From Escherichia coli (lineage in GTDB: Bacteria; Pseudomonadota; Gammaproteobacteria; Enterobacterales; Enterobacteriaceae), in assembly GCF_003790525.1 (NCBI RefSeq), contig NZ_CP033635.1: DNA of 64,000 nucleotides; one strand, written 5' to 3'. Of the stretch, positions 7,877 through 47,600 are shown one piece after another (position 1 is the stretch's first letter; each line of letters begins with the position of its first letter). The position numbers were made by a program, and so were the translations under genes. The notes beneath the pieces were generated by a model. That model saw nothing but the letters and a program-made list of their open reading frames with translations. It searched no databases and was not told the DNA's origin.

Positions 7877-7907
7877 AAAACGGGAGGTGAAGGTGCCTCC
7901 CGTTTTT
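7877..7907. terminator. Bidirectional intrinsic terminator (AAAA-CGGGAGG-loop-CCTCCCG-TTTTT) shared by envZ and the minus-strand antitoxin gene
   Basis: 7 bp GC-rich stem 7881..7887 / 7896..7902 with A-run before and T-run after; antitoxin stop codon (7906..7908) lies in the T-run. Confidence 0.75.
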
Positions 7908-8202
7908 AGATTGTTTTCAATTGATTGATAATGAAAGGATTCGCTTGCAAAAGCAGGAGCAATTTTCGGGGTGCTCCGGTAGGCTGACGGCGTTTGGTTT
8001 CCCAGCTTTTGACCAGGTCATAACTTACCCCTACGGCGACAGCAAAATCTTGCTGACGTAAACCCGTTGCTTCACGGATCGCTTTTACATCGATTTCGCT
8101 AAAAGTATGGACGTGCTCTGGTTCTGGCGTTTCTTCACCCTTTTCGATGCGTACCATTTCTTCTGCGCTGGCAAGAAGATCAGCAAATAATTCATCTTTC
8201 AT
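7906..8202 (-). CDS. HigA-like antitoxin, XRE-family helix-turn-helix DNA-binding protein (98 aa)
   Basis: ATG at 8200..8202 with GGAGG Shine-Dalgarno about 10 nt upstream; C-terminal half has an HTH_XRE signature (LRQQDFAVAVGVSYDLVKSWETKRRQPTGAPRKLL); 58 bp downstream of a RelE/ParE-type toxin gene. Confidence 0.75.
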   Translation of the reverse strand: MKDELFADLLASAEEMVRIEKGEETPEPEHVHTFSEIDVKAIREATGLRQQDFAVAVGVSYDLVKSWETKRRQPTGAPRKLLLLLQANPFIINQLKTI

Positions 8203-8260
8203 CTGTTTTCAATGCCTCCGTTGACATTTCGGCCATGGTGGAATTTGTGGAGCTTCAACA

Positions 8261-8578
8261 TTAAAGCAGCTTCTCGGACAATAGTTTCAATGCCTTTCTT
8301 TGTTCTTCTGTTAAATCATCCTGTTCATTTTTAGGATAAATCAACGCCAGATAAATTCGGCCATTGCGTGTTACGTTGTAATAAATTATCCGAGTGCCAC
8401 CCCGTTTCCCCATTCCAGAACGGTTCCAGCGAATTTTTCTAAAACTGCCTGTGCCTGCGATAATGTCACCGGCAGTGGGATCTTGAATGAGTAGTTCCTG
8501 AAAAGCCCGGAACTCATCATCAGGTAGCAATAACTGGCGGCGTTTGCTAAATCCTTGTAGTTCAATAAAGGTGAACAT
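8261..8578 (-). CDS. HigB-like toxin, RelE/ParE superfamily (Gp49-like), probable ribosome-dependent mRNA endonuclease (105 aa)
   Basis: ATG at 8576..8578 with AGGA SD; motif GTGSFRKIRWNRSGMGKRGGTRIIYY resembles the conserved core of HigB-2/Gp49-like toxins (recalled Vibrio HigB: GTGGLRKIRVASKGKGKRGGSRIIYY); toxin-upstream, antitoxin-downstream order typical of hig loci. Confidence 0.72.
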   Translation of the reverse strand: MFTFIELQGFSKRRQLLLPDDEFRAFQELLIQDPTAGDIIAGTGSFRKIRWNRSGMGKRGGTRIIYYNVTRNGRIYLALIYPKNEQDDLTEEQRKALKLLSEKLL

Positions 8579-17782: not shown

Positions 17783-20335
17783 TCAGAACAATTCCTGTGC
17801 CTCGCCATTATCGATAATGGTCGTTCCCACCTCGTGCACCGCCTGTTGTGTCGGCTGCGTACCTTCGATGAAATACTCTTCGCGGCTGTTGCCACCATTA
17901 GCTAACTGCCCGGTGCTGCGATCGATATTCACCGTCACAATACCCGGCGGCGGCGTCAGCGGCTGCTCCGGCACACCTTCAAGAACGGCTTTCATATAAG
18001 CGTCCCATGCAGGCTGGGCACTCTTGGCACCGCCTTCGTAACCTGAGATCTGATCTTTAATCGCTCCAGAAGCCGTTGTATGACCGAGATTACGACGGTG
18101 ATCATCAAAGCCAATCCAGACCGAGGTCACAACGCCCGGACCGTAACCCGAGAACCACGCATCTTTCGAACTGTTAGTGGTACCCGTTTTTCCGCCTATA
18201 TCATGCCGTTGTAAATCACGACCTGCTCGCCAGCCAGTACCCTGCCAGCCTGGTTCACCAAAAATATTGGTGTTCAAGGCACTCTTAATCAGGAATGCCA
18301 GCGGTGTGTTGATGACGTGCGGTGCGTACTCCTGCGCGCCAGTCTTCGCCACTAACGCCTGATTTGCCTGCTCCAGCTGCGGCATTGGTACAGAAACATT
18401 CTGCTGCTCGCGGGAGATAGCGACATCTTCAACATCGTTATTTTCCAGAACGTTCGATTTCTGCGTATCACCGTAAATCACCGGAATATCGCATTCCGGG
18501 CAGGCTACTTTCGGTTTCGCTTCGAAAATCACGCCGCCCTGATCGTTTTCAATTTTGCTGATAAACCACGGGTCCACCAGGAAGCCGCCGTTCGCCATGA
18601 CCGCGTAGCCACGCGCCACCTGCATTGGGGTGAAGGACGCTGAACCCAGCGCCAGCGATTCGGTGTGGACAATGTTTTGTGCCGGGAAGCCGAAGCGTTG
18701 CAGATATTCTGCAGCGTAGTCGACGCCCATCGCCCGCATTGCGCGTACCATCACCACGTTTTTCGACTGACCCAGCCCCTGACGTAAGCGAATTGGACCA
18801 GCATATTGTGGCGGCGAGTTTTTCGGCTGCCAGTCAGAACCGGCACCTGCGTCCCAGCGAGAAATTGGCACATCGTTCAACATACTTGCCAGCGTCAGAC
18901 CTTTATCCATCGCCGCGGTGTAGAGGAACGGTTTGATGTTGGAACCCACCTGACGCAGTGCCTGGGTGGCGCGGTTAAACTTGCTCTGATTGAAATCAAA
19001 GCCACCGACCAGCGCCATAACGGCACCGTTTTGCGGATTGATCGACACCAGCGCCGAGTTCACTTCCGGCACTTGTGCCAGCCACCATGCATCGCCAACC
19101 TGACGAACCCAGATTTGCTGACCCGTTTGCAAAACATCGGTCACTTTACGCGGCGTCGGTCCCTGCTGAGTATCCGAACGGTAAGGACGCGCCCAGCGAA
19201 CGCCTTCCATACTCAATGCGACGGTCGACCCGTCCGCCAGCATCGCCGTCGCTTCCTGAGGATTGGCGCTGGTGACTGCGGCAGGCAGCAGAGGACCATA
19301 GGTCGGCAGCGCCTTCAACGTATCGGTAATCTTGTTGTTATCCCACGCCGATTCGCCCACTTTCCACAGCACATTTGCCGGGCCGCGATAGCCGTGGCGC
19401 ATGTCGTAGTCCAGCACGTTATTACGTACTGCCTGCTGTGCGGCCTGCTGTACTTTGCGGGTGATGGTGGTGTAAATGCGATAACCGTCTTCATAGGCAC
19501 TTTCGCCATAACGGTTATACATCTCCTGGCGCACCATTTCGCTCAGGTACGGCGCAGAGAAAACAATCTCCGGCGCGTGATAGTTAGCGTTAATCGCCTC
19601 AGTGTGTGTCTGATCGAACTGTTGTTGGGTGATATACCCTTCATCCAGCATCCGCGACAGTACGACGTTACGCCGCGCGACGGCACGATCCATTGAGTAG
19701 AGCGGATTAAAGGTGGAAGGCGCTTTCGGCAGCCCGGCTATCACCGCCATTTCGTTCAGCGTCAGTTGGTCGACCGTTTTACCGAAATAGACTTGTGCCG
19801 CAGCACCGACACCATAGGCGCGGTAACCGAGGTAAATCTTGTTCAGATAAAGCTCGAGGATCTCGTCTTTCGTCAGCAACTGTTCAATGCGAATCGCGAG
19901 GAAGACTTCCTTAATCTTACGCATCAGCGTGCGTTCTGGACTGAGGAAGAAGTTTCTCGCCAGCTGCTGGGTAATGGTACTCGCCCCTTGTGACGCGTGG
20001 CCGGAGAACAGCGCCACACTTGCCGCACGGAAGATCCCCACCGGGTCAACGCCGTGATGCTCGTAGAAGCGGCTGTCTTCCGTCGCGATAAAGGCTTTCA
20101 CCATCTCCGGCGGGATTTGATCCAACGTAACCGGAATACGACGTTTCTCACCGTATTGAGCAATCAGCTCGCCATCGGCGCTGTAAATCTGCATCGGAAT
20201 TTGCAGGCGAACATCTTTTAATGTCGCCACATCCGGCAGTTGTGGCTCGATGTAGCGGTATAGGCCATAAATCGAGCCTGCTCCCAGCAGAATGCAACAG
20301 ACTGCAAGGATCAAAAAATACTTTACGAACTTCAC
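17783..20335 (-). CDS. mrcA: Penicillin-binding protein 1A (bifunctional transglycosylase/transpeptidase)
   Basis: Translation recognised. Start ambiguous: GTG at 20333..20335 gives 850 aa MKFVKYFLILAV...; in-frame ATG at 20357..20359 gives 858 aa. Confidence 0.94.
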   Translation of the reverse strand: MKFVKYFLILAVCCILLGAGSIYGLYRYIEPQLPDVATLKDVRLQIPMQIYSADGELIAQYGEKRRIPVTLDQIPPEMVKAFIATEDSRFYEHHGVDPVGIFRAASVALFSGHASQGASTITQQLARNFFLSPERTLMRKIKEVFLAIRIEQLLTKDEILELYLNKIYLGYRAYGVGAAAQVYFGKTVDQLTLNEMAVIAGLPKAPSTFNPLYSMDRAVARRNVVLSRMLDEGYITQQQFDQTHTEAINANYHAPEIVFSAPYLSEMVRQEMYNRYGESAYEDGYRIYTTITRKVQQAAQQAVRNNVLDYDMRHGYRGPANVLWKVGESAWDNNKITDTLKALPTYGPLLPAAVTSANPQEATAMLADGSTVALSMEGVRWARPYRSDTQQGPTPRKVTDVLQTGQQIWVRQVGDAWWLAQVPEVNSALVSINPQNGAVMALVGGFDFNQSKFNRATQALRQVGSNIKPFLYTAAMDKGLTLASMLNDVPISRWDAGAGSDWQPKNSPPQYAGPIRLRQGLGQSKNVVMVRAMRAMGVDYAAEYLQRFGFPAQNIVHTESLALGSASFTPMQVARGYAVMANGGFLVDPWFISKIENDQGGVIFEAKPKVACPECDIPVIYGDTQKSNVLENNDVEDVAISREQQNVSVPMPQLEQANQALVAKTGAQEYAPHVINTPLAFLIKSALNTNIFGEPGWQGTGWRAGRDLQRHDIGGKTGTTNSSKDAWFSGYGPGVVTSVWIGFDDHRRNLGHTTASGAIKDQISGYEGGAKSAQPAWDAYMKAVLEGVPEQPLTPPPGIVTVNIDRSTGQLANGGNSREEYFIEGTQPTQQAVHEVGTTIIDNGEAQELF

Positions 20336-46141: not shown

Positions 46142-46151
46142 TGATTTCTCG

Positions 46152-46185
46152 CGCGGGCAATCTTGCCCGCGCTTCTGCTCTCCCG
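46152..46185 (+). terminator. Intrinsic terminator of ppiA (stem GCGCGGGCA / TGCCCGCGC)
   Basis: 9 bp GC stem 46154..46175 followed by T-rich TTCTGCTCT. Confidence 0.55.
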
Positions 46186-46245
46186 GCGTAACCCGGATTT
46201 GCCGCTTATACTTGTGGCAAATGGACACGTTCAGGGAGGCATCAA

Positions 46246-46413
46246 GTGAAGAAACTCACCGATAAGCAAAAGTCCCGTCTCTGGGAGCTTCAGCGTAATC
46301 GTAATTTCCAGGCCAGTCGCCGTCTTGAAGGCGTCGAGATGCCTTTAGTCACTCTTACTGCCACAGAGGCTTTAGCGCGCCTTGAAGCGCTGAGGAGGCA
46401 CTATGAGCGATAA
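46246..46413 (+). CDS. yhfG: Small protein YhfG (55 aa), Fic-associated
   Basis: GTG start at 46246; hand translation [55 protein letters not shown]; overlaps fic start by 11 nt. Confidence 0.8.
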
Positions 46414-47005
46414 ATTCGGCGAAGGGCGCGATCCGTATCTTTATCCTGGCCTTGATATCATGCGTAACCGGCTGAACATCCACCAGCAGCAGCGGCTGGA
46501 ACAGGCCGCTTACGAAATGACGGCGCTGCGTGCTGCGACCATTGAGCTTGGTCCGCTGGTGCGCGGTTTACCGCATTTGCGCACTATCCATCGCCAGCTG
46601 TATCAGGATATTTTCGACTGGGCGGGGCAACTGCGTGAAGTTGATATTTATCAGGGCGATACGCCGTTCTGCCACTTTGCTTATATCGAAAAAGAGGGCA
46701 ATGCCCTGATGCAGGATCTGGAGGAAGAAGGTTATCTGGTTGGCCTGGAGAAAGCGAAGTTCGTCGAGCGGCTGGCGCATTACTATTGTGAAATCAACGT
46801 GCTGCATCCCTTCCGGGTGGGAAGTGGTCTGGCACAGCGGATCTTCTTCGAGCAACTGGCGATTCATGCCGGATATCAACTGAGCTGGCAGGGTATCGAA
46901 AAAGAGGCCTGGAATCAGGCAAATCAGAGTGGGGCAATGGGGGATCTCACCGCGCTGCAGACGATATTTAGCAAAGTGGTAAGCGAAGCCGGGGAATCTG
47001 AGTAA
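46403..47005 (+). CDS. fic: Fic-domain protein (cell filamentation protein Fic) with non-canonical active-site motif
   Basis: 200 aa; FIC motif region reads [12 protein letters not shown] rather than canonical HxFx[DE]GNGRxxR. Confidence 0.92.
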
Positions 47006-47036: not shown

Positions 47037-47600
47037 ATGATCCTGCTTATAGATAACTACGATTCTTTTACCTGGAACCTCTACCAGTACTTTTGTGAAC
47101 TGGGGGCGGATGTGCTGGTTAAGCGCAACGATGCGTTGACGCTGGCGGATATCGACGCCCTTAAACCACAAAAAATTGTCATCTCACCCGGCCCCTGTAC
47201 GCCAGATGAAGCCGGGATCTCCCTTGACGTTATTCGCCACTATGCCGGGCGCTTGCCGATTCTTGGCGTCTGCCTCGGTCATCAGGCAATGGCGCAGGCA
47301 TTTGGCGGTAAAGTTGTGCGCACCGCAAAGGTCATGCACGGCAAAACCTCGCCGATAACACATAACGGTGAGGGCGTATTTCGGGGGCTGGCAAATCCAC
47401 TTACCGTGACACGCTACCATTCGCTGGTGGTGGAACCTGACTCATTACCAGCGTGCTTTGACGTGACGGCCTGGAGCGAAACCCGCGAGATTATGGGGAT
47501 TCGCCATCGCCAGTGGGATCTGGAAGGTGTGCAGTTCCATCCAGAAAGTATTCTTAGCGAACAAGGACATCAACTGCTGGCTAATTTCCTGCATCGCTGA
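47037..47600 (+). CDS. pabA: Aminodeoxychorismate synthase component II (glutamine amidotransferase)
   Basis: 187 aa; translation recognised. Confidence 0.96.

Follow-up and report, generated by a model that had tools for sequence, protein, structure and literature searches.

The yhfG–fic gene pair of Escherichia coli encodes a Fic protein with a degenerate signature motif and a conserved small partner

The DNA analyzed here, a stretch of 64,000 nucleotides from Escherichia coli (hereafter the window), contains a small gene, yhfG (ecficA; positions 46246–46413, plus strand), that overlaps the start of a longer gene, fic (ecficT; positions 46403–47005, plus strand). The first starts with GTG and encodes a small, antitoxin-like partner protein of 55 amino acids that belongs to the Pfam YhfG family, and the second starts with ATG and encodes a class I Fic-domain protein of 200 amino acids. 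Fic has lost the residues that bind adenosine triphosphate (ATP) and Mg; its Fic fold and glycine-rich anion nest are retained, as are the catalytic His135 and Arg146. The pair is very probably a class I Fic module that descended from FicT/FicA toxin–antitoxin pairs transferring adenosine monophosphate (AMP) and was fixed between ppiA and pabA in the Enterobacteriaceae; Fic would still be an enzyme, gated by YhfG and acting on a new substrate.

The gene pair is the known yhfG–fic of E. coli, that is, the EcFicT/EcFicA complex of PDB entries 5JFF and 5JFZ. Fic matched 5JFZ_A and 5JFF_A with E values of approximately 1e-134 (2e-134 for 5JFZ_A) and differed from them only at S2G, which is a construct change, and at T187M, where the window has T and K-12 has M. 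YhfG matched 5JFF_B and 5JFZ_B at approximately 1e-28, with three of its 55 residues differing (T40A, A48E, and R51S). The K-12 pair has the same motif, overlap, and ppiA–pabA locus (PMC5033356), and the differences from it are strain-level polymorphisms that leave the motif and Gly55 of Fic and S24/E28 of YhfG untouched. The family assignments were equally clear: Fic matched the Pfam family PF02661 (E = 1.5e-13, residues 58–152) and the NCBIfam equivalog NF007672 (429.5 bits, cutoff 181). YhfG matched PF10832 (6e-25) and the equivalog NF007573 (125.4 bits, cutoff 77). The degenerate motif, the 1:1 complex, and the ppiA–pabA synteny have all been known since 2016 (PMC5033356), and the finding is a correct rediscovery; because the anomaly has been in print since then together with structures and negative AMPylation assays, it adds nothing new and brings the substrate question no closer to an answer or a test. 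E. coli Fic is nevertheless the namesake of the whole Fic/Fido superfamily, and some 40 years of work have not established what it does biochemically; in a 2026 paper on Fic-1–AntF, the mechanism of EcFicT still “remains elusive” (PMC13327609). The survey described below lends modest support to the published view.

The degenerate signature extends from H135 to R146 (positions 46805–46840, plus strand). Relative to the canonical HxFx[D/E]GNGRxxR, the acidic Mg ligand (position 5) is replaced by V139, the Asn (position 7) by S141, and the first Arg (R1, position 9) by L143, whereas the catalytic H135 is retained. An earlier note on this DNA, made from the letters alone, had placed the motif at these nucleotides and read the same V, S, and L replacements, and both the translation and the alignments confirm that reading. 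In pairwise alignments with characterized Fic proteins, the signature occupied exactly the same columns as HPFREGNGRAQR of Fic-1 (PDB 8WT0) and HPFREGNGRTLR of VbhT (PDB 3ZCB/3SHG). No second H.F..G.G...R stretch was found elsewhere in the Fic protein, and, with the alignments in register, a true motif at another position was ruled out. Stanger, Harms, Dehio, and Schirmer described the signature in 2016 as “somewhat degenerated”, with Leu in place of R1, the residue that binds the β-phosphate of ATP, as the key change, and with the Mg-binding acidic residue swapped for a hydrophobic one (PMC5033356). Neither auto- nor target adenylylation by EcFicT was detected, even with the inhibition-relief mutant E28G of YhfG, for which earlier work from 2015 was also cited, and the failure was attributed mainly to these two substitutions (PMC5033356). 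The proposal in the earlier note that the motif argues against standard adenylylation chemistry agrees with this published lack of AMPylation, including that of the E28G mutant.

We compared the loci of 80 Enterobacteriaceae species, which together with the E. coli SMS-3-5 reference (L001) formed a synteny set of 81; YhfG and the locus DNA were aligned for a subset of 20 genera. Across the 80 species, the signature was HPFR[ILVA]G[NST]G[LIMVR]xxR. Position 139 was never D or E (0/80) and was occupied instead by I, L, V, or A, and position 141 was N in 40 species, S in 38, and T in two. At position 143, 77 species had L, I, M, or V, and R1 survived in only three, two of Franconibacter and one of Dryocola. 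Invariant in all 80 species were G55, N132, H135, P136-F-R138 (the P, F, and R0 of the signature), G140, G142, and R146. The nearest database homologues, those of at least 79% identity, were all degenerate in a similar manner (120 of 120). Among 149 other representatives examined, the motif was readable in 120 and canonical in 113, and all 113 were at most 51% identical. Since the distant homologues are canonical and the nearest ones degenerate, these sequences identify the enterobacterial clade as a derived branch within the AMP-transferase family.

The loss of charged residues within this branch appears to have been stepwise. None of the 80 species has kept the acidic residue of the motif, whereas E36 of Fic is retained solely where R143 is retained, so that R1 and E36 are kept jointly in three species and lost jointly in 77. 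In the three exceptional species (Franconibacter, L062 and L063; Dryocola, L077), R1 and E36 are kept but the acidic residue and the Asn are gone (HPFRIG[TS]GRAQR), and the partner YhfG carries SNRLEG. Such forms would be intermediates, and natural test cases for which of the substitutions abolishes AMP transfer. The same distribution bears on the idea that Fic still transfers AMP or another nucleoside monophosphate, whether in unusual circumstances, with a different nucleotide, or to a specific untried target. Two points speak for such a transferase: the adenine pocket and the Asn before the motif are retained (PMC5033356), the latter being the invariant N132, and E. coli growth is strongly inhibited by ectopic EcFicT according to a 2024 review (PMC10886550). 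Nevertheless, adenylylation failed even with inhibition relieved, R1 and the Mg-binding residue are absent in 77 and all 80 species, respectively, and the joint loss of E36 and R1 indicates a remodelled site rather than a tolerated variant, and we regard continued transferase activity as highly improbable.

The partner protein has been retained together with Fic. The YhfG residues S24-R-R-L-E28-G29 (codons at positions 46315–46332, plus strand) fit the inhibitory-helix motif [S/T]xxxE[G/N], and S24 and E28 were invariant in the 20-genus alignment. The motif was present in 76 of the 80 species, the exceptions being two Trabulsiella (SRRLER), one Atlantibacter-like genome (SLRLED), and the type strain of Escherichia albertii, which has a nonsense codon at W13. 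YhfG is thus a small upstream protein with an inhibitory motif, as in the class I FicT/FicA systems. In the published work, it wraps around Fic and co-purifies and co-crystallizes with it (5JFF/5JFZ) as a stable 1:1 heterodimer with a melting temperature (Tm) of 63 °C, E28 forms a salt bridge with R146 of Fic, and the E28G mutation lowers the Tm of the complex by 10 °C (PMC5033356). The suggestion in the earlier note of coupled expression as in toxin–partner pairs agrees with this inhibitory motif and with the co-crystallized complex. Alignment, nucleotide-transfer assays, and co-purification, the checks named in that note, have already been carried out elsewhere.

In its genomic behavior, however, yhfG–fic is unlike a typical mobile toxin–antitoxin module. 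Type II modules are recognized by patchy distribution, horizontal transfer, and variable context, whereas all but one of 5426 complete E. coli genomes carry the yhfG–fic locus (5425/5426), and its position is fixed. With this frequency and the same arrangement in 80 other enterobacterial species, chance does not account for what was observed. Within the synteny set, ppiA lay upstream in 81 of 81 loci and pabA downstream in 79 of 81, and the order ppiA–yhfG–fic–pabA–argD was fixed wherever pabA was matched (79/81). In the two exceptions, the locus sequence ends just past fic (L079), or neither pabA nor argD was found within 3 kb downstream (L077, Dryocola boscaweniae). This pattern of vertical inheritance at a fixed locus is also the published one, with the pair passed on between ppiA and pabA (PMC5033356). 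A literature search for a link between fic and pabA or folate returned nothing usable.

Among solved structures, the closest canonical relative is Fic-1/AntF of Pseudomonas bijieensis 2P24 (PDB 8WT0; PMC13327609), to which Fic aligned without gaps over residues 1–196 (E = 2e-50). AntF, labelled DUF2559 in the PDB entry, resembles YhfG in being a small upstream partner with S24 and E28. With its HPFREGNGRAQR, Fic-1 AMPylates GyrB, and the complex with AntF acts as a deAMPylase, whereas in the E. coli protein the motif residues are V139, S141, and L143, and both E29 and E36 are missing. VbhT/VbhA of Bartonella schoenbuchensis (PDB 3SHG, 3ZC7, and 3ZCB) is likewise a class I system, with the FIC fold and an antitoxin Glu on R2, but VbhT has the canonical HPFREGNGRTLR, is a proven AMPylase of gyrase and topoisomerase IV, and is plasmid-borne, and VbhA has three helices as against two in YhfG. 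No sequence match between YhfG and VbhA was detectable, and a search of the PDB with a YhfG profile recovered AntF with only a weak score (E = 0.24) and missed VbhA. More distant members with altered signatures are Doc, with HxFx(D/N)(A/G)NKR, and AnkX, with HxFxDANGR, both of which keep the charged phosphate-binding residues. The corresponding positions are hydrophobic in the Fic protein of the window, and no sequence similarity beyond the Fic fold was found to Doc or AnkX, neither of which was listed in a PDB search with Fic. Doc, a kinase, and AnkX, a phosphocholine transferase, combine an altered signature with an altered substrate while keeping the His (PMC5033356).

The relationship to Fic-1–AntF raises the idea of a dedicated de-modifying enzyme, in which a domesticated toxin–antitoxin pair would be active as the YhfG–Fic heterodimer rather than as free Fic. 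We consider this improbable, and we give a similarly low chance to its chemical counterpart, in which only the hydrolytic half-reaction would survive, with His135 and Glu28 of YhfG acting on a phosphodiester-linked protein modification and the ATP-dependent forward reaction discarded. Such an enzyme would account for the loss of ATP contacts alongside the retention of His135, R146, and YhfG E28; indeed, YhfG S24, YhfG E28, and Fic R146 are invariant, Fic-1–AntF is itself a deAMPylase that requires E28 of AntF (PMC13327609), and the SxxxEG of the YhfG profile stands in register with AntF in the weak match mentioned above. If it were true, a possible role would be to undo modifications that incoming FicT-type toxins introduce or that appear during stationary phase, and it would explain why YhfG is constrained as much as Fic and co-evolves with it, as well as why the pair is core rather than mobile. 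The deAMPylation by Fic-1–AntF, on the other hand, needs a divalent metal and the negative cleft formed by E29, E36, and E139 of Fic-1. The E. coli protein has Q29, A36, and V139, which leaves it without three of the four acidic residues and weakens the case, and E. coli K-12 has no known AMPylated substrate.

Both genes bear the marks of strong purifying selection in these comparisons. The ratio of nonsynonymous to synonymous substitution rates (dN/dS) of fic was 0.03–0.05 within Escherichia, where dS was unsaturated, and 0.04–0.12 in more distant comparisons; that of yhfG was mostly 0.05–0.12, with three comparisons at 0.16–0.25. Within Escherichia (L002–L005), the dS of yhfG, which here comprises only 51 codons, was 0.14–0.19, about a third of the 0.44–0.65 of the adjacent fic. 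This low value may be noise, although nucleotide-level constraint or recombination boundaries could also produce it. Along fic, synonymous-site conservation showed a mild dip at codons 2–12, which correspond to the overlap, and at approximately codons 87–106, and revealed no clear element embedded within the gene. The two proteins also co-varied: Fic Y67 occurs with YhfG R25 and F67 with YhfG N25 or L25, and no species mixes the two pairings, matching the water-mediated contact between Y67 and R25 in the crystal (PMC5033356). The co-variation patterns, both that of E36 with R143 and that between Fic and YhfG, amount to at most two or three independent events and are supportive rather than statistical proof.

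These values leave little room for decay. A toxin–antitoxin remnant, inactivated by mutation and heading for loss, would fit the degenerate motif, the fic knockout that is as viable as the wild type (PMC5033356), and the existence of disrupted copies, namely, a split fic in one E. coli genome (H12) and the nonsense codon that interrupts yhfG in E. albertii. It is barely credible, however, given the near-universal presence in E. coli, the shared location in 80 species from many genera, the low dN/dS of fic, and the conservation of reading frames, overlap, Shine–Dalgarno sequences, and a promoter-like block; a pseudogene or relic was ruled out by dN/dS together with conservation. A pseudoenzyme is a more serious candidate, though still rather unlikely. 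In that case, YhfG–Fic would only bind something, in a scaffolding or regulatory role, with its active site a fossil preserved for structural reasons. The decades without any activity found (PMC5033356, PMC13327609) and the absence of three substrate-binding residues are compatible with this, and the Tm drop caused by E28G implies that the E28–R146 bridge is at least structural. However, the general base His135, R0, both Gly residues, and R2 do not vary in any of the 80 species, although such residues usually drift in pseudoenzymes, and the pocket beside the motif that is specific to the clade is conserved as well.

The signals around the two genes are consistent with joint expression. The 11-nt overlap (positions 46403–46413, plus strand; ATGAGCGATAA) carries the fic start codon and the final yhfG codons with the stop, and the earlier note had described the 55-amino-acid yhfG, its GTG start, and this overlap just as the list of open reading frames (ORFs) and the sequence show them. 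The overlap was 11 nt in 78 of the 80 species loci and 4 nt in the other two. A Shine–Dalgarno sequence GGGAGG (positions 46234–46239, plus strand) lies 6 nt ahead of the yhfG GTG, and the surrounding CAGGGAGG was conserved in the 20 genera, with ATG replacing GTG as the start codon in other genera. That of fic, AGGAGG (positions 46393–46398, plus strand), falls within the yhfG codons L49-R50-R51, 4 nt ahead of the fic ATG, and its pattern (A/G)GG(A/G)GG was likewise conserved in the 20 genera; the overlap together with this internal Shine–Dalgarno sequence was kept in 78 of the 80 species. Farther upstream, a 20-nt non-coding block, TGCCGCTTATACTTGTGGCA (positions 46200–46219, plus strand), includes a −10-like TATACT (positions 46207–46212) and was nearly invariant across the 20 genera, whereas the flanking spacer was variable. 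The yhfG–fic pair is listed as an RpoS-dependent operon in arrays of E. coli O157:H7 (PMC2907692). Because of this cross-genus conservation together with the RpoS array data, the block is probably the RpoS-dependent promoter of yhfG–fic. A scan for consensus sigma-70 promoters at the borders of the yhfG–fic unit found none, and a terminator scan there also found none.

The upstream edge of the unit is marked by a G+C-rich hairpin, CGCGCGGGCA-ATCT-TGCCCGCGC (positions 46150–46173, plus strand), just past the ppiA stop. A stem was present at the same place in the 20 genera, with varying loop and stem sequences; lacking a T-run, it was passed over by the terminator scan. Judging from these features, yhfG and fic are likely to be expressed in stationary phase from one transcript, with their translation coupled or closely linked, and translational coupling proper is plausible.

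For the YhfG-gated enzyme favored here, the following sequence of events can be proposed. The two proteins would be made from one RpoS-dependent transcript, and ribosomes that finish yhfG, or that load at the internal AGGAGG, would start fic 11 nt before the yhfG stop; the overlapping start would hold YhfG and Fic near equimolar amounts. Fic would still be an enzyme, gated by YhfG, as proposed by Stanger et al. (PMC5033356), and the retained His and anion nest would act on a new substrate of lower charge, bound in a hydrophobic groove specific to the clade. A new hydrophobic groove or pocket beside the motif, conserved within the clade, was described in the same work (PMC5033356), and the data from 80 species agree with the view of a YhfG-gated enzyme.

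Several observations weigh against this proposal. The RNA of the yhfG/fic junction folded no more stably than shuffled sequences, either over positions 46340–46440 (z = −0.02) or over 46215–46440 (z = −0.64), and with folds equal to those of shuffled sequence, there is no sign of a masked ribosome-binding site that would force obligatory coupling, and this idea was rejected. The sole argument that Fic would still be an enzyme is the conservation of His135 and of the pocket. The growth inhibition by ectopic EcFicT reported in the review (PMC10886550), if correct, would mean that EcFicT keeps some toxic activity. The literature on toxicity is mixed, since the viable fic knockout and the lack of a known activity (PMC5033356) contrast with the review. 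Furthermore, full-length YhfG is not always indispensable. In E. albertii NBRC 107761, the type strain (L005:2844-3011), codon 13 of yhfG is changed from TGG to TGA while fic is intact, and a stop codon in yhfG has been reported in strain TW07627 (PMC5033356). Since a nonsense codon occurs with an intact fic, free Fic is tolerated in at least some E. albertii strains. The nonsense codon was also considered as a lineage-wide “antitoxin knockout”, but it is strain-limited: nine other complete E. albertii genomes with an identical Fic have a yhfG intact at 55 amino acids, one of them with W13R.

In public assemblies, rare gene calls joined the two proteins into one chain (P0001, 252 amino acids, and P0006, 233 amino acids; ...ARLEELRVTMSDKFG...), as would result from a 1-nt frameshift in the overlap. 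Such a fusion mimics a class II-like single-chain Fic; P0001 stands for 15 member sequences, and these fusion calls may be sequencing errors. The Gly55 codon of fic (positions 46565–46567, plus strand), which is mutated in the classical fic-1 allele (G55R), is wild-type in the window; the phenotype of G55R is described in PMC5033356. Downstream, pabA (positions 47037–47600, plus strand), the conserved neighbor, begins 31 nt past the fic stop, and a terminator scan of the gap between fic and pabA found no terminator-like site.

In some species, this spacer is enlarged. Pseudescherichia vulneris has an insert of approximately 800 bp between fic and pabA (L070:3647-4334, minus strand), with two ORFs of 128 and 117 amino acids on the opposite strand, and similar extra DNA occurs in a few other genera (L027, L038, L060, and L068). 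The 117-amino-acid ORF of the P. vulneris insert encodes a helix–turn–helix protein with a weak likeness, below the family cutoffs, to antitoxins of the NadS/MqsA type, and the insert is probably a mobile toxin–antitoxin-like element.

The window is nearly identical to E. coli SMS-3-5 (NC_010498.1), corresponding to the reverse complement of positions 3685995–3749994 of that record with one mismatch in 64,000 bases, and the 1-kb yhfG–fic locus is 100% identical. The RefSeq annotation of SMS-3-5 has the same two coding sequences and the gene order tsgA, ppiA, yhfG, fic, pabA, argD. A search of the window against Rfam gave no match. The single mismatch, at position 19605 in mrcA (positions 17783–20335, minus strand), is T in the window and C in the complement of the record; it changes codon 244 of MrcA (PBP1a) from CGC (Arg) to CAC (His) and could be a difference between record versions or a variant. 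Another toxin–antitoxin-like pair occurs in the gap between pckA and envZ (positions 7906–8578, minus strand), where an annotated toxin of the RelE/ParE family (record positions 3741417–3741734) is paired with an annotated NadS-family protein (record positions 3741793–3742089). The pair looks like a mobile toxin–antitoxin insert and is presumably absent from K-12 at that position.

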